64,000 bases of DNA from an uncultured Chitinophaga sp. (GTDB taxonomy: Bacteria; Bacteroidota; Bacteroidia; UKL13-3): the NCBI GenBank assembly GCA_964355075.1, contig CAYHCF010000002.1, positions 16,480-80,479 on the forward strand, in the 5' to 3' direction. Below the pieces are notes generated by a model. It was given only the letters and a program-made list of their open reading frames with translations, was not told where the DNA came from and did no database searches. A program made the position numbers and the translations under genes. Below, piece by piece: positions 19,236 to 41,556 of this stretch (position 1 is the first letter of the stretch; every line of letters begins with the position of its first letter).

Positions 19236-19271
19236 ATGACTAAAATCATATTTATTTTTGACCAATGTCAA
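19236..19271 (+). promoter_or_regulatory. Pair of Crp/Fnr-type palindromic boxes upstream of the 1441-aa activase-like gene
   Basis: aTGACtaaaaTCAt (19236-19249) and tTGACcaatGTCAa (19258-19271). Centres are 22 bp apart, and the proximal box centre lies about 110 nt before ATG 19375. The same architecture recurs at 23819-23854. Confidence 0.4.
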
Positions 19272-19374: not shown

Positions 19375-22300
19375 ATGAAAAACATGAATTCTACCCGTCA
19401 CATGGGTATTTGTATTGGCGCTTCTTCTGTATCGGTTGTAGAGCTTCAGAAAGATCATGAAGAAATAAAGTTGACATCATACAGTACAAAGCCACACCAT
19501 GGCAACCCCAAACAAATAATTGAGGAAATTTTCAGCAAAGAAACACCGGATAAAATAGTTGTAACCGGACGGAAATTTCGGAATTTATTAAACATCACTT
19601 CCATTCCCGAACCAGAAGCTGTAGAACTTGCTGCCGAATACCTTCAACTGAATACGGATATAATAATCAGTGCGGGCGGGGAAAATTTTATCATCTATCT
19701 TTTAGATAAAAACCGGAAAATATCAAAGTGCATGACAGGGAATAAATGCGCATCCGGTACCGGAGAATTTTTCCTTCAGCAAATCCAGCGTATGAACCTT
19801 TCGGTGGAGGATGCAATTGCATTAAGTGGTGAAGGAGAGGCATACAATATTTCAGGTAGGTGTTCGGTTTTTTGCAAATCTGACTGCACCCATGCATTAA
19901 ACAAAGGTGTTGCAAAGCAAGATGTAATTGCGGGTTTATGCCGCATGATGGCTAATAAAATCATTGAATTAACTTCTCATATTTCTTGTGACAGGGCAGT
20001 TATTATTGGTGGGGTAGCACGAAACAACAAAATATTAAATACCCTTCATGAGCATTTTAATGAATTGATCGTACCGGATGAAGCTGCCTATTTCGAAGCC
20101 CTTGGAGCGGCTCTTCATTCCGCAAATAATGAAGTGCCTTCTGTGGATATTGAATCATTATTCAGAAAAGAGCATATTTCTTTTACTTTTCATAAAGACT
20201 TGAAACAATTTGTGGATTTTGTTGATTTCAAGGAATTTCAAAAAGGGGAAGTCGCCGAAAATGATGTGTGTATTTTAGGTTTGGATGTGGGTTCAACCAC
20301 TACCAAAGCAATCATGATGCGGGTATCTGACAATGCAGTACTCGCAACAGAATACTTGCGTACCAATGGAGATCCTATCCAGGCTTCTATTGAATGCTAT
20401 AAAAGCCTGAAAGAAAAATTGAATACGAAGGTAAAGATAATCGGTTTGGGGGTTACGGGTTCCGGAAGGCATATTTCTGGGCTTCATGCCAATACCAAAG
20501 GAATTGTAAATGAGATTCTGGCGCATGCAAATGCCACGATTTATTTTGATAAAGATGTTGATACGATTTTTGAAATTGGTGGTCAGGATGCAAAATATAC
20601 CTTTATTACTGCAGGGGTTCCTTCTGATTATGCCATGAACGAAGCCTGTTCGGCAGGTACCGGTTCTTTCCTTGAGGAGGCCGCCAAAGAATCTTTAAAT
20701 ATAGATTATAAACTGATTGGAGACATTGCTTTAATGGCATCCAATCCACCCAATTTTAATGATCAGTGTTCGGCATTTATAAGCAGTGATGTAAAAAACG
20801 CCTTACATGAAGGATTAAATAAAGAAGACATTGTTGCAGGATTAGTTTATTCCATCTGTTTGAATTTTACCAATCGTGTAAAAGGAAACAGACCCGTTGG
20901 AAACAAGGTATTCATGCAAGGGGGTGTCTGTTATAATAAGGCCGTACCCATCGCAATGGCAGCTTTAACAGGCAAGCATATTATTGTACCGCCTGAACCC
21001 GGATTGATGGGTGCATTTGGGGTGGCATTGGAAATTAAAGAAAGATTGGCCCTTAACCTGTTTGAAGAACAACATTTTGATCTGGATGAATTAATAAACC
21101 GGAAAGTTGAATACGGAAAATCATTTATTTGTGCCGGACAACCAGAAGGGTGTGACCGTAAATGCAATGTTAATTTGATACTGATTGAAGGCAGAAAAAT
21201 TCCATTTGGCGGGGCATGTAACAAATATTACGACTACCGCAAAACCAAATCAAAAGAAAAGGCAAATAGTAATTTAGTTAAAGTAAGGCAAGATCTTGTT
21301 TTCGAAAAATATGCTCCATTTCATGAAGTAGCAGAAAATTCAAAGGTATTGGCCATTCCAAAATCATTTTTGGTAAATACGCTTTATCCGCTTTATTATA
21401 ATTTCTTTTCAAAATTAGGATTCAAAGTTGTATTGGGTGAAGAAGCGGTAAAGGAGGGAATCGACAAGCAGCAGGCCTCTTTCTGTTATCCTGTTGAACT
21501 GGCCCATGGGTTTTTTCAGGGACTCATTGACCTCAAACCTGATTATATTTTTCTGCCTCATATAACTGAAATTTATGATCCACTTGATAAAAACTACAAT
21601 AAAACCTGCATTTTACTTCAGTCTGAAGCCTATTATTTACAATCTACTTTTAATAAATCGATCGGCGATATTAAAATACTTGCCCCGATTATTAATTTTT
21701 CACAAGGTTATGCAAGTGGAAAGGATAGTTTTATTGACCTTGCGATCAGTTTAGGAAAAAGCACGTCTCAGGCTGAGGCTGCATTCAAATTTGCGATCAA
21801 TCAGTTGATGCAAATGTTTGAAGAATTTAAAGCCTTGGGAAAACAGGCAATGGAGGATTTGGCAAAGGATCCAAAGCAGATAGCTATTGTGCTCTTTGGG
21901 CGTTCTTATAATGCATTTGCCAAAGAAGCAAACCTTGGAATCCCCCAGAAATTCTCTTCACGTAACCTAACACTTATACCCCATGACTTTATTCCAAGTG
22001 CACATCTCGAAAGTTATGAAAACATGTATTGGGGAACCGGTAATCAAATATTGCGTTCAGCCCGGTTTGTAAAAAATCATGAACAACTGTTTGGAACCTA
22101 TATTACCAATTTCAGTTGCGGACCCGATTCGATGATGATTCCGTATTTCAGAAAAATTATGGGTAACAAGCCATCACTTACCCTGGAGCTCGACAGTCAC
22201 TCAGCGGATGCCGGTTTAAACACACGAATTGAAGCTGCTGTTGATATTATTAACAGATACCGGGAACTTACCAAAAAAGGTATGCTTAATGAAACCGCTA

Positions 22301-23700
22301 GCAACTTTAAGCAAGTGGAAGTTCATGGCGATATTGTTATAGATTCAAATGGTAAAAAACACAGTATCAGGGACAAGAATGTGAAAATTCTGGTTCCTAG
22401 CATGGGAAGATTTGCTACTGATGGTTTTGCTGCTGCCTTCAGATTCTCTGGAATTAATTCGGAACCATTGCCTGTATATTCTTATGAAACCTTAAAAACG
22501 GGTCGAGGTTTAACCACTTCAAAAGAATGTATTCCTTTAACACTTTGCGCAGGAGCAATGGTTAATCATCAAAATAAAAATCCAAAAGAAGATGAAATCA
22601 CCCTGATGTTTATGTCTACAGGTTGTGGGCCATGCAGACAAGGTCAGTATACCGTTTACCTGAAAGACATCATTGCCAATAAAAATCTTAAAAATCATGG
22701 CATATTTACGCTCACTGATGAAGATTCCTACAGCGGGTTGGGTACAGATTTTGTAATTCGTGGATTTACGGCGCTCACTATTTCAGATGTATATCAGAAT
22801 TTGTATTTTGCAGTAGCTGCCCTTGCAGTTGATAAGGAAAAAGCACTTGAAATGGTGGATCAGGAATGGGAAAAGATCGTAGAAAAAATTGAAAAAGGGA
22901 CGGCATCCGAAGTGTATAACCAGCTTGAGATTGCTGCAAAGAAATTTAGTACAATCGAAAAAATAACTACCATCGAGAAAGCCGTTAAAGTGGCATTAAT
23001 CGGAGAGATATTTGTGCGCAATGAAGACTTTTCAAGAAGAGAACTGGTTCAAAAATTGTTAGAACAGCATATCGTGATAAAAACAGCACCAATTGGTGAA
23101 TATTTGTTATATGCAAATTATCAGATAAAACGATTGTATAAAGAGCATTTACCATCTCTTAACTCAAGAATGCGTTTTAAATTGAGAGAAATTATTCAAA
23201 GAAAAGTAGAATTAAAAATTAAAAATATACTGGCTAAATCCGGATTCTACGAATATGAACCCATTGAGATTGAGAACGTAATAAAACATTCAAAAGGGCT
23301 GATACCGATTGAATTAGAAGGGGAAGCGATTCTAACAGTGGGTAGTGCCATGGCTGATATTGTTCATCATGCATCAGGTATTGTATCACTGGGACCGTTC
23401 GGATGTATGCCATCTCGTGTTGCCGAATCCATTTTAAGTGTAAATATGAATGTAAAAGGGAAGGAAAATGCACAGGGAAAAGAGTTAAAAATGAACAATT
23501 CTGAAATCGAAAATTTGCCATTTTTATCTGTTGAAACCGACGGGAATTTATTTCCTCAGATCATTCAATCCAAATTAGAGATTTTCATTTTGCAAACCAC
23601 CCGTCTTCATAAAGCATTAATGAAAAGTTCTGAAGAAAAACAAAAAAGTTTTACATTAGGTTTATTGGATAAAATAAAGGCTCAGCTCAATCTGTTTTAG
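19375..23700 (+). CDS. Giant acyl-CoA dehydratase/BCR activase-related protein: two BcrAD/BadFG/HgdC-type ATPase domains fused to a Cys-rich C-terminal region of about 800 aa
   Basis: Domain 1 has MGICIGASS..., NKCASGTGEFF and GRCSVFCKSD. Domain 2 has ILGLDVGSTTTKA, EIGGQDAKY, NEACSAGTGSFLEE and NDQCSAFISSD. The C-terminal part has CAGQPEGCDRKCNVN...GGACNKYY, NFSCGPDS, STGCGPCRQGQ and LGPFGCMPSRV motifs, as in the uncharacterised CoA-substrate-specific enzyme activase fusion family. Confidence 0.75.
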   Translation: MKNMNSTRHMGICIGASSVSVVELQKDHEEIKLTSYSTKPHHGNPKQIIEEIFSKETPDKIVVTGRKFRNLLNITSIPEPEAVELAAEYLQLNTDIIISAGGENFIIYLLDKNRKISKCMTGNKCASGTGEFFLQQIQRMNLSVEDAIALSGEGEAYNISGRCSVFCKSDCTHALNKGVAKQDVIAGLCRMMANKIIELTSHISCDRAVIIGGVARNNKILNTLHEHFNELIVPDEAAYFEALGAALHSANNEVPSVDIESLFRKEHISFTFHKDLKQFVDFVDFKEFQKGEVAENDVCILGLDVGSTTTKAIMMRVSDNAVLATEYLRTNGDPIQASIECYKSLKEKLNTKVKIIGLGVTGSGRHISGLHANTKGIVNEILAHANATIYFDKDVDTIFEIGGQDAKYTFITAGVPSDYAMNEACSAGTGSFLEEAAKESLNIDYKLIGDIALMASNPPNFNDQCSAFISSDVKNALHEGLNKEDIVAGLVYSICLNFTNRVKGNRPVGNKVFMQGGVCYNKAVPIAMAALTGKHIIVPPEPGLMGAFGVALEIKERLALNLFEEQHFDLDELINRKVEYGKSFICAGQPEGCDRKCNVNLILIEGRKIPFGGACNKYYDYRKTKSKEKANSNLVKVRQDLVFEKYAPFHEVAENSKVLAIPKSFLVNTLYPLYYNFFSKLGFKVVLGEEAVKEGIDKQQASFCYPVELAHGFFQGLIDLKPDYIFLPHITEIYDPLDKNYNKTCILLQSEAYYLQSTFNKSIGDIKILAPIINFSQGYASGKDSFIDLAISLGKSTSQAEAAFKFAINQLMQMFEEFKALGKQAMEDLAKDPKQIAIVLFGRSYNAFAKEANLGIPQKFSSRNLTLIPHDFIPSAHLESYENMYWGTGNQILRSARFVKNHEQLFGTYITNFSCGPDSMMIPYFRKIMGNKPSLTLELDSHSADAGLNTRIEAAVDIINRYRELTKKGMLNETASNFKQVEVHGDIVIDSNGKKHSIRDKNVKILVPSMGRFATDGFAAAFRFSGINSEPLPVYSYETLKTGRGLTTSKECIPLTLCAGAMVNHQNKNPKEDEITLMFMSTGCGPCRQGQYTVYLKDIIANKNLKNHGIFTLTDEDSYSGLGTDFVIRGFTALTISDVYQNLYFAVAALAVDKEKALEMVDQEWEKIVEKIEKGTASEVYNQLEIAAKKFSTIEKITTIEKAVKVALIGEIFVRNEDFSRRELVQKLLEQHIVIKTAPIGEYLLYANYQIKRLYKEHLPSLNSRMRFKLREIIQRKVELKIKNILAKSGFYEYEPIEIENVIKHSKGLIPIELEGEAILTVGSAMADIVHHASGIVSLGPFGCMPSRVAESILSVNMNVKGKENAQGKELKMNNSEIENLPFLSVETDGNLFPQIIQSKLEIFILQTTRLHKALMKSSEEKQKSFTLGLLDKIKAQLNLF

Positions 23701-23818: not shown

Positions 23819-23854
23819 ATGACAAAAGTCATTTAGAATTATGATGGCCATCAA
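23819..23854 (+). promoter_or_regulatory. Pair of Crp/Fnr-type palindromic boxes upstream of the bcrC-like gene
   Basis: aTGACaaaaGTCAt (23819-23832) and aTGATggccATCAa (23841-23854; 9/10 match to the FNR consensus TTGAT-N4-ATCAA). Centres are 22 bp apart, and the proximal centre lies about 105 nt before ATG 23953. Confidence 0.4.
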
Positions 23855-23952: not shown

Positions 23953-25116
23953 ATGAAAACATTAGAAAAAATAATACAAGATTGTGAATCACTGGCATTT
24001 GACTTGAGTTTTACAAGGGCTAAGGAGTGGAAATCGGAAGATCCAAAGCGAATTATTGTAGGTTATCTACCTATCTATATCCCGCGTGAAATTATTCATG
24101 CTGCAAATGGAATTGCGGTAGGCATTATGGGTTCAGGCGACCGAAAACAGATTATCAAGGGAGACGCTTATTATCAATCCTATATATGTCATTTCCCAAG
24201 AGGTGTTATCGAAATGGCATTAGATAACAATCTGGATGGATTTGACGGATTTCTGTTCCCTGCCATATGTGACTGTGTTCGGAATCTTTCGGGCATGTTT
24301 AAATTATCCAAAAAGGGGAAATTTCAACGTTATTTTGACTACCCTCAAAATTTCGAATCCCATATAGGTGGAACTTTTTACAAACAGGAAATTGAAAAGG
24401 TTCTGGACGATATGTTTGCCATCAACGGGATAAAGGTTACTACCAAAGCACTTAATCAATCGATCCTTTTATATAACAGAAACAGAAACCTGATTGAGAA
24501 AATATATGATATCAGACAAGCAACGCCATGGAAACTATCAGCCGTTGAAACCTATTATATTCTTAGAGCTGGTCAGGTAATTCCTGTTGAAGAGCACAAT
24601 GAAATATTGGAACAAGTAGTTTCTCATTTACAAAATGAGAGAGGAGAGCCAATGGACAATATCCGTATAGTTGTTAGCGGCTCCTTCTGCGAACAACCCC
24701 CAATTGGCTTGATAAAGTCGATAGAATTGGCAGGTTGCTATATTGTGGAGGATGATTTTATGTTGGGATCAAGACTCATACAGGGAAATATAAACGCAGA
24801 TTCAGACATCCCTCTGGAAACCCTGGCAGATGCCTATATCAATCACAGTACATTCTCCTCGGCTTTTTATGATGTTGGAAATCCCAAGGGAAAACGACTG
24901 GTAAAACTGGCAAAGGAAAGAAATGCAGATGGTATCATTTTCTGTGCGGCCAGCTTTTGTGACCCTGCCCTACTCGACCGCCCGGAAATGCAGAAAGAAT
25001 GTGACCTTGCAGGAATTCCGCATATCAATTTCCAATTCCATGAAAATACCGGTCAGTTTAAAGTAATAAAAGAACAAGCCGGAACTTTCTCTGATTCGAT
25101 AAAGCTTTGGGCATAA
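23953..25116 (+). CDS. bcrC: Benzoyl-CoA reductase (class I) subunit C-like protein (BCR/2-hydroxyacyl-CoA dehydratase family)
   Basis: 387 aa, first gene of a C-B-A-D ordered set. N-terminal ...RAKEWK...IVGYLPIYIPREIIHAANG and the Cys pattern are typical of the family. Size and position match BcrC/BadD as I recall them. Confidence 0.6.
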   Translation: MKTLEKIIQDCESLAFDLSFTRAKEWKSEDPKRIIVGYLPIYIPREIIHAANGIAVGIMGSGDRKQIIKGDAYYQSYICHFPRGVIEMALDNNLDGFDGFLFPAICDCVRNLSGMFKLSKKGKFQRYFDYPQNFESHIGGTFYKQEIEKVLDDMFAINGIKVTTKALNQSILLYNRNRNLIEKIYDIRQATPWKLSAVETYYILRAGQVIPVEEHNEILEQVVSHLQNERGEPMDNIRIVVSGSFCEQPPIGLIKSIELAGCYIVEDDFMLGSRLIQGNINADSDIPLETLADAYINHSTFSSAFYDVGNPKGKRLVKLAKERNADGIIFCAASFCDPALLDRPEMQKECDLAGIPHINFQFHENTGQFKVIKEQAGTFSDSIKLWA

Positions 25117-25239
25117 TTCAAATTATGAGTTATGAGTTATGAATTTGATTTATTAATGTTTAACGGATAGGTGGAGATTGCATCTGCCCTTCATGGATGA
25201 AAACAATGTTTTAAATATAAAAAAAAATTATTAATTATT

Positions 25240-26544
25240 ATGAGCAAAGGACATCAAGAGGCAATTAAAGAAAATAGCATGGTTATCCAAAAGGAGATGC
25301 TTGCCAAACAATTTAAGGAATTAAGTACTGCGAGTGAACTTGGCAAAAAAGTTGTTTATACTTTTGTTCCGGGAAACCTTACCGAACTTATTCTATCATT
25401 TGACATGCTACCGGTGTACCCCGAGATCAATGCCTTGCAGTCGGGTATGCGAAAAAAATCTGCTGATTATATCCGCGACGCTGAAAAGGTAGGATACTCA
25501 GAAGATGTTTGTACTTACGTAAAATGCGATGTAGGAATGATGTTGAACGGAAATATTGGTCCAACAGGAGAAAAAATTCCGCCACCCGATTTATTATTAT
25601 TGAGCTATACAGGTTGTTTTACTTTTTTAAAATGGTTTGAGAATCTCGAACGCTTGTATCCGGGAGTACCGGTTGCCATGTTGCATACACCCTATCAGGA
25701 AGATGGTAAAATATCTCAGGATCAAATTGACTACATGGTTAAACAAATGAAAGAGGAAGTGATACCAAAAATGGAAATGGTATCCGGGCAGAAATTTGAT
25801 ATGGACCGTCTTTCAAAGATGCTTGTAAATTCAGCAAAAGCTGAAGACTTACTGGTAAAGATTTTAGAGAGTGCAAAACAGGTGCCATCACCTATTGATG
25901 CTTATTTTGCCGGCGTATATTATATAGGCCCGATTTTCACGGCTTTTAGAGGTACCGAAGAAGCTGTAGAATATTATACTGAACTATGGAATGAGGTTCA
26001 GGAAAGAATGAGATTGGGTTTAGGCCCTATTACTCCGGAAGGGGAATTGAAAGAAGAGAAATTCAGGTTGGTTGTTGAAGGACCTCCTAACTGGACTAAT
26101 TTCAGAGAGTTTTGGAAAATATTTTATGATATGGGAGCTGTTATAGTTGCCTCATCCTACACCAAAGTGGGTGGTGTTTACGATCAGGGGTTCAGACATG
26201 ACAGTAAAGAACCGCTTGAAAGTTTAGCAAAATATTGTATGGGGGTTTACACCAATCTGAACCTGCCACAACGTGTGGACATGCTTGAAAAATATGTAAA
26301 AGATTATAAGGCCGACGGTTTTCTTATCAATTCCATAAAAAGCTGCAACTCCTTCTCTGCAGGCCAATTAATGATTATGAGAGAGATTGAACAGAGGGCT
26401 GGAGTGCCTGTTGGATTTATCGAATCTGATTTGGTTGACCCCAGGTACTTTTCCTATGCCAATATTAAGAATAGATTAGAATCGTATTTCCAGATGTTGG
26501 GTCAGCGGAAAATCATAATAAAACAGGTAGAAGCAGAAGTGTAA
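25240..26544 (+). CDS. bcrB: Benzoyl-CoA reductase (class I) subunit B-like protein
   Basis: 434 aa BCR/HAD-family protein (VVYTFVPGNLTELILSFDMLPVYPE..., CTYVKCD). Second position in the four-gene set; size close to BcrB/BadE. Confidence 0.6.
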   Translation: MSKGHQEAIKENSMVIQKEMLAKQFKELSTASELGKKVVYTFVPGNLTELILSFDMLPVYPEINALQSGMRKKSADYIRDAEKVGYSEDVCTYVKCDVGMMLNGNIGPTGEKIPPPDLLLLSYTGCFTFLKWFENLERLYPGVPVAMLHTPYQEDGKISQDQIDYMVKQMKEEVIPKMEMVSGQKFDMDRLSKMLVNSAKAEDLLVKILESAKQVPSPIDAYFAGVYYIGPIFTAFRGTEEAVEYYTELWNEVQERMRLGLGPITPEGELKEEKFRLVVEGPPNWTNFREFWKIFYDMGAVIVASSYTKVGGVYDQGFRHDSKEPLESLAKYCMGVYTNLNLPQRVDMLEKYVKDYKADGFLINSIKSCNSFSAGQLMIMREIEQRAGVPVGFIESDLVDPRYFSYANIKNRLESYFQMLGQRKIIIKQVEAEV

Positions 26545-26712
26545 TTGGTAATCGGTAATTGGTAATTGGTAATTGGTAATTGGTAATCGGTAATTGGTCC
26601 CTTCGACAAGCTCAGGATGACAAATTTTGTTGTCATAGTGAGCCTGTCGAACTACGGTAATTGGTATTTGGTAATCGGTAATTGGTAATCGGTAATTGGT
26701 AATTGGTAATTG
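26541..26712. repeat. Composite repeat: 8 x GTAATYG heptamers, a 50-nt imperfect palindromic core, then 8 x GTAATYG heptamers
   Basis: Heptamer arrays at 26541-26596 and 26657-26712 lie in direct orientation. The core hairpin has arms 26602-26623 and 26630-26651 (22-nt arms, 3 mismatches). The first heptamer overlaps the bcrB-like stop codon. Confidence 0.9.
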
Positions 26713-26750
26713 GTTTAAAAAAAATAAATTAGCATATAAAATAGAATTAA

Positions 26751-28166
26751 ATGAATAAATATTATCTTGGAGTTGATCTTGGCTCCACAACATCAAAGGC
26801 GGTTATCATAAACGATCAGGATGAAATTATTGGTCGTGGAATTACCAATACCCGCGCCAACTACTCGGTGGCGGCAGATATAGCCAGGGAAGAAGCGATT
26901 TATAACGCTCGTTTTTCCATACTCAAAAAAAATCTTGAAAAAGATATGGAATCGAATCCCGAGTACAGAAAGTATATTTCAGATCTGGAAAGTGTTTTTC
27001 AATATGAACAATTCAAAGTTCGGATTGATAAGTTGGGCGAGGAGCTGGTAAAAACCTGTAATAGTTACCTGTCGGGAGACAAGAAAGATCTCATGCTGGA
27101 GAATTTAAGAAATATCAGAAAAGTAATTAAGCCAAAAATAAAACATGCGTATATTTTCGGTGATCTGGGTTCCAAAAATCAGTTTTTCAGGGATATCGTT
27201 TCAGAGCTTTACAACGAAGAAGTAAACAAGCTCGACAGTTCATTATTTGAACCTTTAATGACTATTTGGGATAAAAGTATCAGTCCGGCCGAGAATCAGG
27301 CTGTTGAATTCAACTTCTTTGAATTGATCCAGAAGGCAATGGAATTGCTTAGAGAAAAATATGAAAACCTTCCTGATAATCTCGAAGATGAAAGCATCAA
27401 TTTTGATGCTGAATTAAATTTATTAAAAGGCAAGTTTTATAATGTTAGCGATTCCTTACGCGAGCACATTCATAATATTGCCAGGATTGAATTTAATATT
27501 ACCAATATGACCGGAACGGGCTATGGTCGTGCACTACTTCCATTTCCTCAGGAATGTATCCGTTCTGAAATTTTATGTCATGCTTTTGGTGCCCACGCAA
27601 TTTTTCCTGAAACCCGAACGGTTTTAGACATAGGTGGTCAGGATACCAAAGCAATTCAGGTTGATAAATACGGATTGGTTACCAGTTTCCAGATGAACGA
27701 CAGATGTGCTGCAGGTTGTGGAAGGTACTTAGGTTATATCGCCGATGAGATGAGCATATCTTTAAACGAATTAGGACCCATGGCGATGAAAGCAGAAAAG
27801 GAAGTAGTGATTTGTTCTACCTGTACTGTTTTTGCCGGAGCTGAATTAAGGGAACTTACCAATCTTGGTGAGAAACGAGAGGACATTCTGGGCGGCTTAC
27901 ACAAGGCCATTATTATGCGGGCAATGTCGCTGATTGCCCGTTCAGGTGGTGTATTTAACGAATTTACTTTTACCGGAGGGGTTGCGAGAAATCAGGCGGT
28001 GATTAAGTACCTTACCCAATTAGTAAGAGAAAATTACGGAAATGATATTGTAATAAATATTCACACCGATTCAATTTTTATGGGAGCATTGGGAGGAGCC
28101 ATGTTTGCAAGAAGGAACATGGTTGCTGATTTACCAACTACAAAAAAAACAAAAGAATTAGCATAA
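26751..28166 (+). CDS. bcrA: Benzoyl-CoA reductase subunit A-like ATPase (BcrAD/BadFG family, with insertion)
   Basis: 471 aa. YLGVDLGSTTSKAV (phosphate 1), LDIGGQDTKAI, MNDRCAAGCGRYL and CSTCTVFAGAE (cluster-bridging Cys positions). An insert of about 170 aa follows the first strand region, as in BcrA/BadF-type subunits. Confidence 0.65.
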   Translation: MNKYYLGVDLGSTTSKAVIINDQDEIIGRGITNTRANYSVAADIAREEAIYNARFSILKKNLEKDMESNPEYRKYISDLESVFQYEQFKVRIDKLGEELVKTCNSYLSGDKKDLMLENLRNIRKVIKPKIKHAYIFGDLGSKNQFFRDIVSELYNEEVNKLDSSLFEPLMTIWDKSISPAENQAVEFNFFELIQKAMELLREKYENLPDNLEDESINFDAELNLLKGKFYNVSDSLREHIHNIARIEFNITNMTGTGYGRALLPFPQECIRSEILCHAFGAHAIFPETRTVLDIGGQDTKAIQVDKYGLVTSFQMNDRCAAGCGRYLGYIADEMSISLNELGPMAMKAEKEVVICSTCTVFAGAELRELTNLGEKREDILGGLHKAIIMRAMSLIARSGGVFNEFTFTGGVARNQAVIKYLTQLVRENYGNDIVINIHTDSIFMGALGGAMFARRNMVADLPTTKKTKELA

Positions 28167-28182
28167 AAATAAATAATAATAA

Positions 28183-29022
28183 ATGATGGAAAATTTTTAT
28201 ACAATGGGGATCGATGTGGGTTCTAATTTTATCAAACTTGTATTGGTAGATTACTCCAATAATCCTCAAATAATTGACAAGCACACTGAAAAGATCAGAA
28301 AGCGCAATCCTTCAGTTGTGGCTGAAGAATTGATTCAGGGGATGTTGACGAAAAACAATCTTCAATATGAAGACATTGCATATCTGGCTTCAACCGGTGA
28401 AGGAGATTTGGTAAAACGCAAACGAGGACATTTTTATGGAATGACCACACATGCCAAAGGAGCACACTATTTCTTTCCGGATGCCATTACCGTAGTGGAT
28501 ATGGGAGCGCTATATGTAAGAGCCATTAAAATGACGACAGATGCCCGCGTTCAGGATTATAAGATGACCGGTCAGTGCGCCTCCGGATCGGGACAATTTG
28601 TTGAAAACATTTCGCGCTATCTGGGACTGTCTATTGAAGAAGTAGGAGGTGTTTCCCTGCAAGCTGAAGCTCCCGAATTATCTTCCGGGATTTGTGCAGT
28701 ATTGGCTGAAACTGATGTAATCAATATGGTTTCAAGAGGAATTAAAACACCAAATATTATCAAAGGAATTCACCTCTCCATAGCCAGCAGAATCATTAAA
28801 CTACTAAGCTCCCTCAAGGCAGAATCTCCGATCGTTATTACCGGGGGGATGTCGTTGAATAGTGGCATGATACAGGCCATTGAAGAACAATTACTGGAAA
28901 CCGGGAAAAAATATGTTATCAAAACGCATCCCGACGCCATTTATGCAGGCGCAATCGGTGCGGCTTTGTGGGGAGGATTCAGGCATATTAAATTGAAGGA
29001 AAAGCAAGCTGAACTGGTATAA
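28183..29022 (+). CDS. bcrD: Benzoyl-CoA reductase subunit D-like ATPase (BcrAD/BadFG family)
   Basis: 279 aa. MGIDVGSNFIKLV, TGQCASGSGQFVEN, GICAVLAETDVIN and ITGGMSLN. Last gene of the C-B-A-D order. Confidence 0.65.
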   Translation: MMENFYTMGIDVGSNFIKLVLVDYSNNPQIIDKHTEKIRKRNPSVVAEELIQGMLTKNNLQYEDIAYLASTGEGDLVKRKRGHFYGMTTHAKGAHYFFPDAITVVDMGALYVRAIKMTTDARVQDYKMTGQCASGSGQFVENISRYLGLSIEEVGGVSLQAEAPELSSGICAVLAETDVINMVSRGIKTPNIIKGIHLSIASRIIKLLSSLKAESPIVITGGMSLNSGMIQAIEEQLLETGKKYVIKTHPDAIYAGAIGAALWGGFRHIKLKEKQAELV

Positions 29023-29157
29023 GCACGAAGGTAGGATCCGCGTGATTTCACGAATCCAAAATAGAGAAAAACAGCCATTGGGAAAAAAAGTATAAGTAAT
29101 TAACTTTTAAGTAAGACCCCTATTTCGTAAAATAATAAAAAGAATAAAAATATAATT

Positions 29158-31290
29158 ATGGATTATCAGGGTGAGACAGAAAGTATTGGATCCATTGGAA
29201 TTGAAAACGAATTGGATTCCTTGTTTAAGCCAAAGTCTATTGCAATTATCGGGGCTTCATCAAAAGAACTATCTATCGGAAATGTTATCATTAAAAATCT
29301 GATTCATTTCGGGTTTACAGGAAAAATATTTCCGATTAATCCTAAGGAACCTGAAATTAGGGGAATTAAAGCTTATCCCTCTATATTGGACGTGGAAGAA
29401 AGCATTGATTTGGCGCATATCATTATTCCTTCCAAATTTGTTCCACAAATCATTGAAGAATGTGGTAAAAAGGGTGTTAAATCTGTTATCATAAACTCTG
29501 CAGGATTTAGTGAAATGGGCGAAGAAGGCATGGCACTTCAAAAAGCATTTCTAAGCAAAGCAAAAGAATATGGCATCAGGGTATTTGGCCCAAATTGCCA
29601 GGGGATTATCAATACAGATCCTGTGTATAAAGCCTATTGCGATTTCACCTTTACTTTTCCTGAACCGGGCTCTGTATCGATTGTTGCATTGAGCGGAGGT
29701 GTAGGAGCATTCATTATGCAAAGTTTGTTCGACCTTGAAATTGGAATGCGTTATTATGCCTCCAATGGAAATGCTTGTGATATCTCAATTTCGGAGGTTT
29801 TAGAATATTATGGCAATGATGAAGCTACCAAAGCAATCATTCTATATACCGAAGGATTTAAAAATCCAAGAGAATTCATGGAAGTAGCAAAGACTGTTGC
29901 AAAGAAAAAACCCATACTCGCAATGAAATCAGGCAGAACCGAAGAAGGGGCACAGGCTGCAGCTTCTCATACAGGTTCACTTGCCGGAGTTGATATTTCA
30001 ACTGAATTGATTTTTGAAAAAACAGGAATACTATCCTTTACGAACGAAGAAGAAATGTGTCAGGCAGCAAAAGCATTTTCTTCTCAACCCATTCCAAAAG
30101 GTAACCGGGTTGGTATTATTACCAATACAGGAGGTCCGGCTGTTATTGCCACTGATGAATTGGTAAATTCAGGTATGCATATCCCTCCCCTTTCTGAAAA
30201 AGCAAAAACCATATTACAACAAACTCTTTTGCCTGAAGCCAGTATAGGAAATCCAATTGATGTTGTGGCAACGGGTGGAGGAATTCATTTCAGAAGTGCT
30301 TTAGATGTAATGATGGATGAAGAACAAATTGATTCAGTTTTCATCAATTTTGTAACTGCCCCCTTTACGGATACAAATGAGGTTGCCAGAAATATTGTAG
30401 CAGTAAACCAACAAAAGAGAAAACCCATCATCTGCAATTTTATGACCAATATGAGTCTGGAGCGTTTTCAGGAAACTGCAAAAATTCTCAAAGATGGCGG
30501 AGTTCCCTGCTATAGCTTTCCAACCACCGCAGCCAAGGCTCTCGGGGCATTATATAAATACCATCAATTGCAATCCAGGTATATTGGTGTTCCAAAATAT
30601 TTTAATGATGTAAATAAAACAAAAGCAGATTCCATTTTGAACCAGGTAAACGTTACAGGAGAATTCCTTTCAAGTAGTCACGCATATGAATTGCTTTCAG
30701 CTTATGGGATTCCGGTTGCGGATTGGTGTATAGCTCATACGGTTGATGAGGCTATTACAGGTGCCAGAGAAATCGGATACCCTGTTGTAATCAAAGCGGA
30801 AACAAAATCATTGATACACAAAAGTGATCAGGGTGGCGTGGCAATTAATCTGATCAATGAAGAAGAGGTTCGATATGTAATTGAAAAGATGCAAGAGCAG
30901 TTTTTGGACAATGATTTGAAGTTTTTTGTTCAGAAATTTCTTCCCGGAGTGAAAGAATTAGTTGTGGGTGTGAGCGGACAAAGAGATTTGGAGCACCTGA
31001 TTATGTTTGGTTTGGGGGGGATTTATGTTGAAGTATTGAAAGATGTTGTATTCAAACTTTCTCCAATTACCGAATTGGAAGCGAATGAAATGATTTCATC
31101 GGTAAAAGCAGCAAAATTACTGGAAGGGGTAAGAGGGAAAAGTGGAATTGACAAGCGGAGTGTAATTGACATTATTCTTCGTATTTCTCAATTGGTAAAT
31201 GATTTCCCTCAAATAAAAGAAATGGATCTGAACCCGATTATGGCATTTGAGGACTGCGCGTATGTTGTGGATGCGAGGATTATGGTATAG
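29158..31290 (+). CDS. ADP-forming (NDP-forming) acyl-CoA synthetase, fused alpha-beta type
   Basis: 710 aa. CoA-binding Rossmann (IAIIGAS...GN), succinyl-CoA-synthetase-like ligase domain with phosphohistidine motif AASHTGSLAG, and a C-terminal ATP-grasp domain. Confidence 0.8.
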   Translation: MDYQGETESIGSIGIENELDSLFKPKSIAIIGASSKELSIGNVIIKNLIHFGFTGKIFPINPKEPEIRGIKAYPSILDVEESIDLAHIIIPSKFVPQIIEECGKKGVKSVIINSAGFSEMGEEGMALQKAFLSKAKEYGIRVFGPNCQGIINTDPVYKAYCDFTFTFPEPGSVSIVALSGGVGAFIMQSLFDLEIGMRYYASNGNACDISISEVLEYYGNDEATKAIILYTEGFKNPREFMEVAKTVAKKKPILAMKSGRTEEGAQAAASHTGSLAGVDISTELIFEKTGILSFTNEEEMCQAAKAFSSQPIPKGNRVGIITNTGGPAVIATDELVNSGMHIPPLSEKAKTILQQTLLPEASIGNPIDVVATGGGIHFRSALDVMMDEEQIDSVFINFVTAPFTDTNEVARNIVAVNQQKRKPIICNFMTNMSLERFQETAKILKDGGVPCYSFPTTAAKALGALYKYHQLQSRYIGVPKYFNDVNKTKADSILNQVNVTGEFLSSSHAYELLSAYGIPVADWCIAHTVDEAITGAREIGYPVVIKAETKSLIHKSDQGGVAINLINEEEVRYVIEKMQEQFLDNDLKFFVQKFLPGVKELVVGVSGQRDLEHLIMFGLGGIYVEVLKDVVFKLSPITELEANEMISSVKAAKLLEGVRGKSGIDKRSVIDIILRISQLVNDFPQIKEMDLNPIMAFEDCAYVVDARIMV

Positions 31291-31339
31291 TTAAATAACA
31301 AAATGATCATAAACAATTACAATTATAAACTGAATCAAC

Positions 31340-32560
31340 ATGTATAAAATTCAAACAAGCAAATTAATGAAGGAAATAATGGCAAATTATTTCCTGGGAA
31401 TGAAAGATCCATCAAAAAAAATTGCATGGTGTACGAGTGTTGGCCCTGCTGAACTATTACGCTCATTTGGTTTTGAGGTTCATTTTCCTGAAAATCACGG
31501 TGCCTTATTGGGAGCTACCCGAACGGCGAATGATTTGATTCCTGAATCAGCCATTTTGGGATATTCCAATGATATTTGCTCTTATTTAACTGCAGATATC
31601 GGTTCCTACTTAACCAAACAGACTCCATTAAAAGAGCACTATGGATTAAATGGACCCCCAAGACCTGACCTGATTGTATATAATACCAATCAATGCCGCG
31701 AGGTACAGGATTGGTTCACTTATTTTGCAAGAGAGTTGAATTGCCCGATATTTGGCATTAACCCACCCAGACATGTAACGGAAGTAACACAGGAGGAGAT
31801 TGAAGATGTTGCCTCTCAATTCAAAGCTATGATACCTGTATGTGAAAAGGCAAGCGGCTTAAAATTTGATATCGACCGATTTAGGGAAGTGTTAAAATTA
31901 AGCAAGGAAGCAACCGATTTATGGAAGAAGGTATTGAATACAGCCACTATTTCTCCTGCTCCCATCAGCTTTTTTGATGCCACCATACATATGGGACCCA
32001 TCGTGGTTTTAAGGGGAACAGAGATTGCGAAAGTATATTACGAAACGCTCCTGAGTGAATTAGAAGAAAACGTAAAAAAAGGAATGGGATTTTTAGAAAA
32101 AGAAAAGTCTCGTATATACTGGGATGGGATGCCCATCTGGGGTAAATTGAGATCCTTGTCTGATTTATTTATTCAAAATAATTCGGCAGTGGTAGCTTCC
32201 ACTTATTGTAACAGCTGGATATTTGATGCATTTGATGAAAGAAATCCTTTTGAGTCATCTGCAAAAGCGTATACTGAGATATTTATTAATAGAAGCGAAG
32301 AAGCCAAGCAGAAAATACTCAGTAATCTCGTTCACGATTTCCACGTGGATGGAATGATATTCCATGATGCCAAAACATGCTCTAATAACTCGAACTCAAG
32401 ATTTGGAATGCCTCAGCGAATATCGGAAACACTTGGAATTCCAACCCTGGTCATTGAGGGTGATTTGTGCGATTTGCGATTTTATTCGGAAGGTCAGAGT
32501 GTCACTAAAATTGAAACATTTATTGAGCAGATCGAAAGCTCAAACGTATTCAGTCAATAG
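31340..32560 (+). CDS. Stand-alone 2-hydroxyacyl-CoA dehydratase/BCR-family (D-component-like) protein
   Basis: 406 aa. Family-typical N-terminus (KKIAWCTSVGPAELLRSFGFEVHFPENH). 8 Cys, including WCTS, ICSY, QCRE, YCNS, TCSN and LCDL. No partner subunit gene is adjacent. Confidence 0.7.
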   Translation: MYKIQTSKLMKEIMANYFLGMKDPSKKIAWCTSVGPAELLRSFGFEVHFPENHGALLGATRTANDLIPESAILGYSNDICSYLTADIGSYLTKQTPLKEHYGLNGPPRPDLIVYNTNQCREVQDWFTYFARELNCPIFGINPPRHVTEVTQEEIEDVASQFKAMIPVCEKASGLKFDIDRFREVLKLSKEATDLWKKVLNTATISPAPISFFDATIHMGPIVVLRGTEIAKVYYETLLSELEENVKKGMGFLEKEKSRIYWDGMPIWGKLRSLSDLFIQNNSAVVASTYCNSWIFDAFDERNPFESSAKAYTEIFINRSEEAKQKILSNLVHDFHVDGMIFHDAKTCSNNSNSRFGMPQRISETLGIPTLVIEGDLCDLRFYSEGQSVTKIETFIEQIESSNVFSQ

Positions 32561-32575
32561 AATATTTACCTTAAT

Positions 32576-33049
32576 ATGGTTCTTATGAAAAATGATGATT
32601 TTCAGGAAAAGCAGGTATTCAAACTTTCAACAGGAGAAAAGGTAAACAATGCCGAAATTGAAAAACTTATTGAAAATACCTGTCATTATGTAAAGTTTGT
32701 GACGTTGAGTGATGGAGAAAATGAAAACCATGTTGCTTTAATTTTTCCAAACATAGAATTGCTGAACAATCCGAATTATAAATTAACCCCTGACGAAGGC
32801 TGCTTTTGTCCCCGAAACCTTACAGAACTCGGGAGGTGTTTGTCCGGTTGTATGAATAATGTTAACAAGCAACTGGAACCAGGTTCAGGAACAATTATTT
32901 CTACCCGCATCTTGAATGAGGATAAAAATAAAGCAGAATCATACCAGACTCCTGAAAACATAAACAAAACACTCAAAACTTTTCTAAAGGATTTGATTGA
33001 TGATGTTGATACCTCTGAAAATGAAACATACTATATCCCATCCTTGTAA
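32576..33049 (+). CDS. Hypothetical small Cys-rich protein
   Basis: 157 aa with CFCPRN...GRCLSGC. The N-terminal half (STGEKVNNAEIEKLIE...HVALIFPNIELL) loosely resembles the C-terminal subdomain of AMP-forming long-chain acyl-CoA synthetases. Compactly packed between neighbours on the same strand. Confidence 0.35.
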   Translation: MVLMKNDDFQEKQVFKLSTGEKVNNAEIEKLIENTCHYVKFVTLSDGENENHVALIFPNIELLNNPNYKLTPDEGCFCPRNLTELGRCLSGCMNNVNKQLEPGSGTIISTRILNEDKNKAESYQTPENINKTLKTFLKDLIDDVDTSENETYYIPSL

Positions 33050-33091
33050 TTAATAATCCAAAACAATCTTGAATGATATAACCAAAATAAA

Positions 33092-34942
33092 ATGATGGAA
33101 AAATCAGAAAAACTAAAAGTCGGAGTGGTAGGATTAGGTCCTGTTGGAATGATTCTGGCAGTCAAATTAAAAGAGGCTGACTGCGAAGTTTCGATATGCG
33201 ATAAAGATGATTTTAAACTTAAAAAAATAAGAGAAAGCGGTATTGTATTAGAAAATGCCATTGAATCGAGTACCCGTTTCGAACGGATTTTTGATTCGAT
33301 TGTGGATATGAGATCTCAGGATCTTGATTACCTCATTTTCGCTTTAAAATCTTATCAAACAATAGGAGCTGTTAAAGAGGCTGAGTTATTAAATACAGAA
33401 AAACTCACTTTGGTTTCGGCTCAAAATGGGATAGATGTAGAACAGCTAATTACGGCAACTTTTGGCGAATCCAAAACGCTGCGCATGATTGTAAATTTTG
33501 CCGGAAATATGAAATCCGCAAATACAGTAAAGGTTTCTTTTGTAAATCCTCCAAATTATTTAGGTTCGGTTGATGACAGCAGAACAAAGGAAGCGATTAT
33601 TCTTGCTGAAACTTTGAATAAAGTTGGATTCAGAACTGAAAAATTAGATTCTTTTGACCTGGTAAAAAGCATTTGGCAGAAAACAATTTTAAATGCATCT
33701 TTAAGTGCTTTATGCGGTGTGGGCAGGTTAACTATGGCTGAGGCTATGGCTGATAATGATACAATGGAACTCGTTGAACAAATCATGAATGAGGGAATTG
33801 AGGTTGCCGAAAAGGAGAAGATTCGTTTTGCAGATGATTTTGTTAGAAAATGCATGCAATATCTTAAAAAGGGGGGCGACCATTTTCCCTCATTATCTGT
33901 TGACTTAATAAATAACCGGCCCACCGAAATAGATTTTTTTAATGGAAAAATTGTTGAATATGGCAAAAAGCATTATGTAAAAACTTCTCTAAACCTGGCA
34001 TTTACAAATATGGTGAAGGCCATGACCAATAAAAATGTATTAAACCGGTTTCCCGGTATTGATGAAGAATTATATAAAAAAATTATCAATAAAGGAATGA
34101 TTGAAAAGAGTCGTTCCACTATTTATTATAAAGAACATGATTGCTTCCTTGGAATTGACTTAGGATCGGCATTTACCAAGTTTAATATTATTGATGGGAA
34201 CTCCAATCCCGTGTTCAGGTATATTTTACCTACCATGAACAAAGACCGGAATGCCATGAAAAATGTTCTGAAATCAATTTATGCTTCCTTCCAGATTAAA
34301 CATAGTTGCGCAACCGGTTATGGCAGGAAACATTTTACAGAAACAGATATTATAAAAACAGAAATAAACTGTGCGGCTGTTGGGGTGGGTGAATTTTTCC
34401 AGGGAGAGAAAAATATCATTGATATTGGAGGAGAAGATATTAAGATCATTCATACCAATCAAGAGAATTTTGTTGCAAATTTTTACATGAACGACAAATG
34501 TGCTGCAGGTACCGGCGCTTTTCTGGAAGAAATTTCGGAGAGAGCAGAAATAAATAACGGCGAAATGAGTAGTCTGGCAGCACATTCGTCATTTGATAAA
34601 GAGTTAAATAGTTTCTGTACGGTATTTGCTAAAACCGAGATCATGAGTTGGGTATTTGAAGGCATGATGAAACAAGACATTGCAAGAGGAATCTATATTT
34701 CAATCGCCAATAAAGTAGCGAAAATGAAACTATTCCCAAATATTCCTACTTATTTAATCGGAGGCGTGGTAGCCCATCATCCCTATCTTGGAAATATTTT
34801 AAGCGAAAAATTCCATAAAGAAATACACGCGCTCGACAATCCCCAATATATTGTTGCACACGGTGCTGCTATTTTGGCTAAAGAAAACTGGCTTTTAAAC
34901 AATCCTAAAGAATTCATTATTTCAGAATCCATAACAAATTAA
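33092..34942 (+). CDS. Fusion protein: ketopantoate reductase (ApbA/PanE)-like NAD(P)-binding oxidoreductase plus HgdC/BcrAD-type activase ATPase
   Basis: The N-terminal region of about 320 aa has VGVVGLGPVGMILAVKL (Rossmann) and a PanE-like C-terminal helical part (...TEIDFFNGKIV). The C-terminal region of about 270 aa has FLGIDLGSAFTKF, DIGGEDIKII, MNDKCAAGTGAFLEE and SFCTVFAKTE. Confidence 0.7.
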   Translation: MMEKSEKLKVGVVGLGPVGMILAVKLKEADCEVSICDKDDFKLKKIRESGIVLENAIESSTRFERIFDSIVDMRSQDLDYLIFALKSYQTIGAVKEAELLNTEKLTLVSAQNGIDVEQLITATFGESKTLRMIVNFAGNMKSANTVKVSFVNPPNYLGSVDDSRTKEAIILAETLNKVGFRTEKLDSFDLVKSIWQKTILNASLSALCGVGRLTMAEAMADNDTMELVEQIMNEGIEVAEKEKIRFADDFVRKCMQYLKKGGDHFPSLSVDLINNRPTEIDFFNGKIVEYGKKHYVKTSLNLAFTNMVKAMTNKNVLNRFPGIDEELYKKIINKGMIEKSRSTIYYKEHDCFLGIDLGSAFTKFNIIDGNSNPVFRYILPTMNKDRNAMKNVLKSIYASFQIKHSCATGYGRKHFTETDIIKTEINCAAVGVGEFFQGEKNIIDIGGEDIKIIHTNQENFVANFYMNDKCAAGTGAFLEEISERAEINNGEMSSLAAHSSFDKELNSFCTVFAKTEIMSWVFEGMMKQDIARGIYISIANKVAKMKLFPNIPTYLIGGVVAHHPYLGNILSEKFHKEIHALDNPQYIVAHGAAILAKENWLLNNPKEFIISESITN

Positions 34943-34944
34943 TT

Positions 34945-36207
34945 ATGAAATCCTATCACGATAAAGACAAAGGTATTGCCATTTCATTTGACGATATCTA
35001 TTTAGTAAACGGAGTAAGAACTCCTTTTGGAAAATTTTGCGGAACCTTGGCAAATGTATCTCCTACAGATTTGGGGATATTCGCGTCAAAGGCTGCATTA
35101 AAAAAATCGGGAATTGAGCCTGACGATATTGATCAGGCCATTATAGCGAATATCGGACAAGCCTCTGGCGATGCCTATTTTCTTCCAAGGCATATCTCCT
35201 TATTTGCCGGGTTACGTATGACCGTTCCCTCATTAATGGTGCAGAGAATCTGTGCTTCAGGATTTGAAACACTCATTACTGCCGCCGAACAGATTACTTT
35301 AAATAAAGCAGGATCTGTTTTATGTTGTGGAACCGAAAACATGTCGCTTGCACCCACCGTAAGCTTTGGAAACCGGATGGGTTATGCTCTGGGAAGACCT
35401 GTTTTTAAAGATATGTTGTGGGAAGCTTTAGATGATACCGCTGCCGGATATCCAATGGGGTTTACGGCAGAAAATGTTGCCAAAAAACATCAAATCACCC
35501 GGGAACAATGCGATGAATTTGCATACCTGTCCTTTCAAAGAGCTTTGAATGCACAAAATAAGGAAATCTTTAAAGATGAAATTACTCCCATTAATTCAAC
35601 CGTGTTTGAAATAGAAGGGTTGAAACCAAGAAAGGTTCGTTTACCGGGTGGTGTTAAAAATTTTATAACGGATGAACAGATTCGCGATACTTCCATTGAA
35701 TCTCTAGCAAAATTACCAACCGTATTTTCTGAAGTTGGTGTTTTAACCCCGGGAAATTGCAGCGGTATCGTTGATGGAGCGGGTGCAGCTGTGGTTGCTG
35801 ATGCGAATACGGTTAAATCGAAGAATTTGAAACCCATCGCAAAAATTGTAGCTGCTGCCAGTTGCGGTATTGACCCAAAAATAATGGGATTGGCTCCTGT
35901 ACCTGCCATTCAGTTACTTCTCGAATTTACCGGATTAAAGATAGAGGATATCGGTTTGTTTGAAATAAATGAAGCATTTTCAGCACAGTTGATTGGTTGT
36001 GAAATCGAACTTGGACTAGACCGGGATAAACTAAATGTGAATGGGGGTGCCATCGCAATCGGGCATCCTTTGGCAGCATCGGGATTAAGACTTTCCTTAA
36101 CCATTATCCGTGAAATGAATTTGAGAAACATTAAATACGGAATTGCATCAGCTTGTATTGGAGGCGGACAAGGAACCGCGATTTTATTTGAAAATATTAA
36201 TCTATAA
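34945..36207 (+). CDS. Acetyl-CoA C-acyltransferase (thiolase)
   Basis: 420 aa. VQRICASGFE (active Cys), NEAFSAQ, NVNGGAIAIGHPLAASG and ACIGGGQGTA. Confidence 0.9.
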   Translation: MKSYHDKDKGIAISFDDIYLVNGVRTPFGKFCGTLANVSPTDLGIFASKAALKKSGIEPDDIDQAIIANIGQASGDAYFLPRHISLFAGLRMTVPSLMVQRICASGFETLITAAEQITLNKAGSVLCCGTENMSLAPTVSFGNRMGYALGRPVFKDMLWEALDDTAAGYPMGFTAENVAKKHQITREQCDEFAYLSFQRALNAQNKEIFKDEITPINSTVFEIEGLKPRKVRLPGGVKNFITDEQIRDTSIESLAKLPTVFSEVGVLTPGNCSGIVDGAGAAVVADANTVKSKNLKPIAKIVAAASCGIDPKIMGLAPVPAIQLLLEFTGLKIEDIGLFEINEAFSAQLIGCEIELGLDRDKLNVNGGAIAIGHPLAASGLRLSLTIIREMNLRNIKYGIASACIGGGQGTAILFENINL

Positions 36208-36210
36208 TAA

Positions 36211-37275: not shown

Positions 37276-37284
37276 ATTAAAAAA

Positions 37285-38385: not shown

Positions 38386-38387
38386 AT

Positions 38388-39161: not shown

Positions 39162-39171
39162 CCTTAATACT

Positions 39172-41483: not shown

Positions 41484-41556
41484 AAAATGATAATTATTGG
41501 AATATCGTTGTATAGTAGCCCTTCTGGCTATTTTTTTTCGGTTGAATGAAAATGAA

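Follow-up and report, generated by a model that had tools for sequence, protein, structure and literature searches.

We found that the gene at positions 19375 to 23700 of the 64-kb window (the whole stretch of DNA analysed here, from contig CAYHCF010000002.1) encodes a 1441-amino-acid (aa) protein that, judging from its sequence, is most probably a self-contained, oxygen-sensitive ether-lipid synthase of the PlsA/PlsR-Ger family. The protein is a previously undescribed member of this family, which was characterised in 2021-2022. The original prediction had described a fusion of two activase ATPase domains to a Cys-bearing C-terminal part, and the open reading frame (ORF) call, Pfam, and NCBIfam all bear this out; its statement that the fusion family has no assigned substrate is outdated, given the descriptions of the plasmalogen synthase PlsA/PlsR (2021) and of Ger (glycerol ester reductase; 2022). 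More than 8000 homologs of the 1441-aa protein are present in public databases, where the records name them only "acyl-CoA dehydratase activase".

As recounted in later papers (PMC12838417, PMC9702350), the plsA-plsR genes of Clostridium perfringens encode the anaerobic plasmalogen synthase of Jackson et al. (2021), a multi-domain enzyme related to benzoyl-CoA reductase (BCR) and HAD, which converts the sn-1 acyl ester of a diacyl lipid into a vinyl ether by reduction. Many bacteria have plsA and plsR fused into one gene of 4.2-4.9 kb with the domains Act1, Act2, Red1, and Red2 (PMC12838417, PMC9702350). The validated single-gene plsA measures 4248-4920 bp, a range that includes the 4326-bp gene of the window, and the C. 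perfringens plsA-plsR region measures 4287 bp (PMC12838417). The Ger enzymes of Thermotoga maritima and Desulfatibacillum alkenivorans yield saturated 1-O-alkyl ethers upon anaerobic expression in E. coli (PMC13159169, PMC8788747), and their published architecture comprises two PF01869 domains, PF09989, and small HGD-D pieces (PMC13159169). The domain set of the window protein, two PF01869 and one PF09989, matches this published PlsA/Ger architecture. Both PlsA and Ger are active mainly or only under anoxia (PMC13159169, PMC12838417), and the Listeria pls ortholog also appears active in anaerobic growth (Goldfine review, PMC9702350).

The gene and its domains, all on the forward strand, are arranged as follows:

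19375 to 23700, + strand: complete ORF with an ATG start, 1441 aa in a single polypeptide, probable PlsA/Ger-family protein (Act1-Act2-4Cys-Red1-Red2).
19402 to 20130, + strand: Act1, the first BcrAD_BadFG/ASKHA domain, aa 10-252, with the cluster cysteines C125 and C163 (alignment and fold match).
20272 to 21033, + strand: Act2, the second BcrAD_BadFG domain, aa 300-553, with the cluster cysteines C425 and C465 (Pfam, alignment, and fold match).
21130 to 21219, + strand: four-Cys motif C586-x6-C593-x3-C597...C615 in the Act2-Red1 linker (invariant family-wide).
21322 to 22269, + strand: Red1, aa 650-965, DUF2229 plus an HGD-D-like tail, with the Cys triad C704/C745/C915 (Pfam, Cys alignment, and hhalign).
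22372 to 23604, + strand: Red2, aa 1000-1410, an internal duplicate of Red1, with the Cys triad C1052/C1087/C1344 (alignment and hhalign).
23566 to 23694, + strand: long C-terminal α-helix, aa 1398-1440 (H839-881 of the C-terminal AlphaFold2 model).

The two BcrAD_BadFG stretches were detected by Pfam with E = 1.3e-53, and the DUF2229 domain (PF09989) was located at aa 660-873 with E = 6.8e-43 and 147 bits against a cutoff of 29.4; the original prediction had named both domains for the search. The NCBIfam model TIGR00241 (CoA_E_activ) matched the protein twice, with 237 bits against a cutoff of 125. The HGD-D-like domain that had also been named fared less well: the C-terminal half has no HGD-D match even at E <= 10, and weak, sub-threshold HGD-D matches lie immediately after DUF2229 in some family members. 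The C-terminal helix may be compared with that of PlsA, which is discussed in PMC12838417.

A 1484-aa protein of L. monocytogenes is colinear with the window protein over ~1365 residues (25% identity, E = 4e-94), and the colinearity extends through residue 1349; this and the other homologs from named organisms (Fusobacterium, Collinsella) were drawn from chromosome-sized PLSDB records. A scan with two Act1-specific motifs matched more than 600 genomes. The best 80 of these matches span the full length at 46-73% identity to the window protein, and their hosts belong to the Prolixibacteraceae, Ignavibacteria, Desulfobacterales, Syntrophales, Clostridia, Fibrobacteres, Verrucomicrobiota, Woesearchaeota, and Methanosarcinales. 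This spread over many phyla, together with DPANN and Methanosarcinales archaea, agrees with the published distribution of Ger (PMC13159169), homologs of which have already been reported from Bacteroidota metagenome-assembled genomes (MAGs) (PMC11868695). The Pfam-string ("BB") criterion for Ger applies to the window protein and equally to the Listeria protein, hence it does not discriminate between them. No published sequence signature separates alkyl-ether from alkenyl-ether enzymes (PMC11868695, PMC13274423), and the predicted product of the window protein could be either ether, the two being indistinguishable from sequence. In addition, the annotated proteins of the anaerobic eukaryote Anaeramoeba flamelloides include a 1491-aa full-length family member (KAJ3428733.1; P0185 / P0390), which suggests that a protist acquired bacterial-type ether-lipid synthesis by lateral transfer.

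The cysteines of the protein are conserved to an unusual degree. All of the motifs quoted in the original prediction were found, namely NKCASGTG (C125), GRCSVFC (C163), EACSAGTG (C425), and DQCSAFI (C465) in the ATPase domains, and CAGQPEGCDRKC...GGACNKYY (C586/C593/C597/C615), GCGPCRQG (C1087), and FGCMPS (C1344) in the C-terminal region. To these we add the conserved C704, C745, C915, and C1052, and we remove C1084, the first cysteine of GCGPC, which is not conserved. In 33 homologs of 52-88% identity, the invariant C-terminal cysteines are C586/C593/C597/C615, C704/C745/C915, and C1052/C1087/C1344. In a 55-sequence family alignment that reaches down to 23% identity and includes Listeria, 14 of the 55 invariant columns are cysteines, so the conservation of Cys across the family exceeds chance, and Fe-S-type Cys conservation does extend through the C-terminal region of the homologs. 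The 14 cysteines fall into groups of 2+2 (the bridging cluster), 4, 3, and 3. PlsA is likewise stated to have conserved cysteines and clusters (PMC12838417).

Both pairs in the ATPase domains, C125/C163 and C425/C465, align with the CAAGTG and C(T/S)VF cysteines of HadI (4EHT) and HgdC (1HUX), which in HgdC are the ligands of the subunit-bridging [4Fe-4S] cluster. Since both ATPase domains retain the two cluster-ligand cysteines, the intramolecular pseudo-dimer with a bridging [4Fe-4S] cluster, as first proposed from the sequence, is the natural reading of this region. The C586-C615 site is a candidate for [4Fe-4S] or Zn binding, in a region of low model confidence. The two C-terminal halves, Red1 and Red2, are homologous (hhalign 95.4%, E = 2e-8, 292 columns), and their Cys triads superpose position for position in the profile-profile alignment; therefore, the C-terminal 880 aa constitute an internally duplicated pseudo-heterodimer with two equivalent three-Cys sites. 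Neither Red1 nor Red2 gave a significant hhalign match to the three single HGD-D proteins of the window.

We modelled the protein with AlphaFold2 in two parts, aa 1-574 and aa 560-1441, with a predicted local distance difference test (pLDDT) score of 84 and 81, respectively. Each Act domain resembles HadI, HgdC, the BCR ATPase subunits MbdQ/MbdP, and DCCP-R, with a template modelling (TM) score of 0.78-0.87 per domain. The two best Protein Data Bank (PDB) matches of the C-terminal model are DCCP (6ENO, E = 2e-3) and BzdNO (8S02, E = 1e-2), both weak. The low-potential chemistry that had been proposed for the protein is supported by these fold matches and by the literature (PMC12838417), which place it among the ATP-driven low-potential reductases of the BCR/HAD/DCCP superfamily. 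The double_cubane model NF040772 is not among the NCBIfam models that match the protein.

The family divides cleanly into two subfamilies. Subfamily A, the window type, comprises proteins with at least 36% identity to the window protein, and subfamily B, which includes Listeria, comprises those with 31% identity or less. The two differ at four sites:

Act1 phosphate-1 motif: G-(I/L)-C-x-G-A-S in subfamily A, with Cys in place of Asp; G-x-D-x-G-S in subfamily B.
Act1 phosphate-2 motif: S-A-G-G-E-(N/T) in subfamily A, not GGxDxK; often intact in subfamily B.
Act1 cluster helix: CSVFCKSDC in subfamily A, with two extra invariant cysteines; no extra Cys in subfamily B.
Four-Cys motif: C-x6-C-x3-C in subfamily A; C-x2-C-x3-C in subfamily B.

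In the window protein, the Act1 nucleotide motifs are accordingly degenerate, with GICIGASS in place of DxGST and GGEN in place of GGQD, whereas those of Act2 (DVGSTT / GGQDAK) are canonical, as are the Act2 motifs of both subfamilies. The extra Act1 cysteines, C167 and C171, lie one and two helical turns after the ligand C163 and are invariant in subfamily A. Comparison of the Act1 with the Act2 motifs suggests that the activator of subfamily A has one competent ATP site, in Act2.

Several points weigh against assigning the window protein to ether-lipid synthesis. Its link to the tested enzymes runs through architecture, the Listeria protein at 25% identity, and the distribution over taxa; its subfamily is a distinct one, with only 23-31% identity to the Firmicute type; the fold match of its C-terminal half is weak (E = 2e-3, TM 0.24/0.41); and a search of the family profile against PDB sequences matched only activators and unrelated ASKHA kinases, with no solved relative of the C-terminal half. 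The adjacency of the gene to a bcr operon and the promoter box shared with it, both described below, are also compatible with some functional coupling. The alternative that survives best, although we consider it improbable, is that subfamily A has diverged to a substrate other than a plasmalogen or alkyl-ether precursor, as in a DCCP-like ATP-dependent reductase of small molecules. The sequence distance from the Listeria type and the invariant signature of subfamily A (Cys for Asp in the Act1 phosphate-1 motif, CSVFCKSDC, and C-x6-C-x3-C) speak for such a divergence, as do DCCP being the best fold match and no experimentally tested enzyme having been placed in subfamily A. However, the 14 candidate ligand cysteines and the entire domain order are common to both subfamilies, the double_cubane model does not match the protein, and the taxa of subfamily A (Desulfobacterales, Syntrophales, Woesearchaeota, and Methanosarcinales) are the reported carriers of Ger homologs, with the validated Ger of D. 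alkenivorans coming from the Desulfobacterales.

For an ether-lipid synthase of this kind, we propose a mechanism modelled on the BCR/HAD paradigm and the published PlsA proposal, in which the cluster types, electron path, substrate, and product are predictions. The two N-terminal ASKHA domains would fold back as a pseudo-dimer holding one bridging [4Fe-4S] cluster via C125/C163 and C425/C465. ATP binding and hydrolysis would take place chiefly or exclusively at the canonical Act2 site; Act1 has lost the acidic residues of its phosphate motifs. A low-potential electron would then be driven into the C-terminal pseudo-heterodimer Red1/Red2, which may carry a three-Cys cluster site in each half (C704/C745/C915 and C1052/C1087/C1344), with the four-Cys site C586-C615 as a possible relay. 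The sn-1 acyl ester carbonyl of a membrane diacyl-glycerolipid would be reduced and dehydrated to the 1-alk-1'-enyl ether (plasmalogen), and Ger-type enzymes would carry the reduction further to the saturated 1-O-alkyl ether. The gene is likely to form its own transcription unit with its own operator of the CRP/FNR type.

The gene stands at the head of an aromatic island, directly upstream of a bcr-like operon and on the same strand, with a gap of 252 bp to bcrC, as the original prediction had described. The genes downstream of it (23953-41169) encode a convincing, complete class I benzoyl-CoA pathway of the Thauera type. The island proteins score above the NCBIfam equivalog cutoffs for BcrC (457 bits against 421), BcrB (697 against 487), Had (462 against 339), and Oah (584 against 464), and the other genes encode BcrA, BcrD, an ADP-forming acyl-CoA synthetase, a thiolase, Dch, and a 3HCDH-ECH fusion. 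Further members of the island are a third HGD-D protein, which has an ApbA-activase fusion of its own, and a Mo enzyme resembling 4-hydroxybenzoyl-CoA reductase. Type IX secretion system (T9SS)/CHU_C proteins flank the pathway in what is apparently a Bacteroidota genome.

The question arises whether the 1441-aa protein functions within the aromatic island, either as an ATP-driven reductase or dehydratase of aromatic or alicyclic acyl-CoA, or as an extra electron-activating module for the BCR-like enzyme or a third HGD-D enzyme. This is very unlikely, although adjacency, a common enzyme superfamily, and a TGAC-N4-GTCA palindrome that occurs only upstream of these two units favour it. When island proteins were searched by tblastn against all fetched loci, BcrB/C-like genes were found only in two copies of the window's own contig and at none of the 87 independent homolog loci; hence, the homologs show no association with bcr genes. 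The 88%-identical ortholog is flanked by the housekeeping genes lptC, coaX, and birA, without bcr, and retains the box, and further homologs are sited among sugar, cytochrome, or glycan genes. The immediate neighbours of the homologs (82 loci, 140 flanking genes) are heterogeneous: they represent 171 Pfam families, the commonest of which, MFS, accounts for 7 of the 140 flanking genes, and neither HGD-D/BCR nor any aromatic-pathway family figures among the 25 commonest. In favour of a link, one sampled neighbourhood, and no other, has something of an acyl-CoA character: a 72%-identical homolog (P0012; L002, 10001-14398 and flanks / L003) shares its strand with a block of genes for a family III CoA-transferase, subunits of methylmalonyl-CoA mutase, 2-oxoacid:ferredoxin oxidoreductases, a fused oxidoreductase of 1123 aa, and a molybdenum (Mo)-hydroxylase. 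An enoyl-CoA hydratase gene also lies directly downstream of the homolog, on the same strand, in two Eubacteriales MAGs (L067, 10872-11693; L072, 5882-6670). The island, in turn, has its own ATPase modules, BcrA and BcrD in the bcr operon and an ApbA-activase fusion beside the third HGD-D protein, and the 1441-aa protein is not merely an activase because it has its own two-half catalytic module. The adjacency thus looks specific to this lineage and not a sign of shared function.

Two narrower assignments were rejected. As a class I benzoyl-CoA reductase, the protein scores far under the BCR equivalog cutoffs (95 bits against 578 for TIGR02259, 88 against 380 for TIGR03192, and 78 against 313 for TIGR02261), and its HGD-D match is absent, as noted above. 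Stand-alone activators of the HgdC/HadI type are free homodimers of ~27 kDa that serve a separate dehydratase; in contrast, the window protein has two copies fused in cis to its own catalytic module. Finally, a decaying or non-functional fusion, or an assembly artefact, might be suspected from the loss of canonical ATP-binding residues in Act1, but this is effectively refuted, as the identical protein is present on 6 independent contigs from different samples, the orthologs of 52-88% identity are full length, and the Act1 changes are invariant across the subfamily, which indicates selection and not decay.

The promoter architecture that had been said to be shared with the bcr-like operon is real and consists of two putative regulator sites, both detected by sequence scan and neither assigned to a strand:

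19258 to 19271: perfect palindrome TTGACcaatGTCAA with half-sites of the CRP/FNR type, 116 bp upstream of the ATG of the 1441-aa gene.
23819 to 23832: related palindrome aTGACaaaaGTCAt, 133 bp upstream of the bcrC-like ATG of the neighbouring operon.

The TGAC-N4-GTCA pattern occurs exactly twice in the 64 kb against 0.45 expected, and since 9% of the window is intergenic, two intergenic boxes are unlikely by chance, although the pattern was chosen after it had been seen. The half-sites resemble the FNR consensus TTGAT-N4-ATCAA. At a near-equivalent position, the closest ortholog has TTGACggaaATCAA, with one mismatch; the box is absent in ~38 loci of more distant orthologs. We prefer shared anaerobic control over shared chemistry because the closest ortholog has the box without bcr neighbours. 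The simplest reading is that two oxygen-sensitive systems, each with its own promoter, are under the same anaerobic control, by a regulator whose identity we infer, and the two units probably share only anaerobic induction. The FNR/CRP-family protein AcpR of Azoarcus, for comparison, activates the benzoyl-CoA reductase operon under oxygen deprivation (PMC6678401). No CRP/FNR regulator gene was found in the 64-kb window. The hairpin GGGGTCA...TGACCCC after the stop codon is not better than in shuffled sequences (z = -0.8), scans for sigma-70 promoters and terminators gave results at or below chance, with Bacteroidota-type promoters lying outside the models of the scan, and Rfam has no matches in the whole window. 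Read-through from the 1441-aa gene into the bcr operon is possible because no significant terminator or Rfam element separates the units. It is a rather doubtful but testable idea that the signature of subfamily A, a possible Ger-versus-PlsA discriminator, marks alkyl-ether Ger as opposed to alkenyl-ether PlsA and implies a one-ATP-site activator, and that one anaerobic regulon of the CRP/FNR type unites ether-lipid remodelling with benzoyl-CoA reduction.

Other features of the window and of the homolog loci are recorded here. Three genes occupy 31340-34942: that of the third HGD-D protein (406 aa, nearest to HadB and BcrB), a 157-aa ORF without a Pfam family, and that of a 616-aa protein in which a ketopantoate-reductase-like (ApbA) domain is joined to a single activase domain; they seem to specify a separate HAD-like enzyme and an unusual activator of its own. 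Genes of the MobA-like and XdhC-like types, an SDR, a 964-aa Mo-hydroxylase, and then a flavin adenine dinucleotide (FAD) subunit occupy 42620-48604, where the start codons of the genes at 42620, 43134, and 43939 overlap and are uncertain. The Mo-hydroxylase unites the 2Fe-2S (gamma) and alpha subunits in one chain, and its best NCBIfam match is 4-hydroxybenzoyl-CoA reductase alpha (781 bits, under the 995-bit cutoff). Two intergenic segments of the bcr island are unusual in that tandem heptamer arrays surround a central inverted repeat, and neither has an Rfam match: 26545-26728, with (GGTAATT/GGTAATC)n on either side of a 22-nt inverted repeat (26602-26623 / 26630-26651), and 41170-41490, with (GAGATGG/GAAATGG)n around a perfect 11-nt inverted repeat (41248-41258 / 41288-41298). 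A perfect 14-nt inverted repeat (TTGAGCGAAGTCGA / TCGACTTCGCTCAA) at 48643-48723 separates the FAD-subunit gene from a gene with a hemerythrin domain and probably serves as a terminator or operator. At four homolog loci from Bacteroidota and Ignavibacteria (L001, L007, L020, and L033), a birA-like biotin-ligase gene recurs beside the homolog, accompanied in two of them (L001 and L007) by a type III pantothenate kinase gene, which hints at where the homolog lay ancestrally, before it came to adjoin the bcr island in the lineage of the window.

The analysis corrects the annotation of a fusion beside a benzoyl-CoA reductase operon from aromatic catabolism to a probable ether-lipid synthase of the PlsA/Ger type. 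This Bacteroidota lineage would thus probably synthesise ether lipids anaerobically, a point of relevance wherever bacterial ether lipids serve as environmental biomarkers. The residue-level map of the 14 invariant cysteines and of the Red1/Red2 duplication is useful for a family without a solved structure.

Compared with known systems, the window protein is closest to PlsA/PlsR (C. perfringens CPE1194-1195, Q8XL48/Q8XL47; E. faecalis Q835P9; L. cremoris; B. longum; Listeria), with which it shares the Act1-Act2-Red1-Red2 order, the size, all 14 candidate Fe-S cysteines, a stand-alone gene, and the BCR/HAD superfamily. It differs in its identity of ~25% (measured against Listeria), in the Act1 nucleotide motifs, which are degenerate in the window subfamily and intact in Listeria, in the two extra Cys of the Act1 cluster helix, in C-x6-C-x3-C instead of C-x2-C-x3-C, and in one DUF2229 stretch in the C-terminal half instead of the two in Listeria (Pfam, permissive threshold). 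Ger, a "modified PlsA" (T. maritima Tmari_0479/AGL49404; D. alkenivorans SHJ90043) that we compared by its description only, has the same BB-D(+H) Pfam architecture and reported activity only under anaerobic conditions, and the window subfamily spans the reported taxa of Ger homologs (Desulfobacterota, FCB group, DPANN, and Methanosarcinales). In the case of the class I reductases BcrABCD, BzdNOPQ, and MbdONPQ, the ATPase domains of the window protein are homologs of BcrA/D and MbdQ/P that have the two cluster cysteines in common with them, its C-terminal half has the weak fold match to BzdNO, and ATP-coupled transfer of low-potential electrons is expected in both. However, the window enzyme is one polypeptide instead of four subunits, its catalytic halves are of the DUF2229 type without a recognisable HGD-D domain, and its homologs are unassociated with aromatic genes, while a true BcrCBAD operon adjoins the window gene. 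With HgdAB/HgdC, HadBC/HadI, and DCCP/DCCP-R, the protein shares the activator fold (TM 0.78-0.86), the helix-cluster-helix cysteines, and a heterodimer-like core with three-Cys sites, of which DCCP 6ENO is the top fold match. In contrast to these systems, its activator is duplicated and fused in cis instead of being a free homodimer, its core has no sequence-level match to HgdAB, HadBC, or DCCP in the comparison of the family profile with PDB sequences, and its family has been assigned a membrane lipid ester as substrate, in place of an acyl-CoA or a small molecule.

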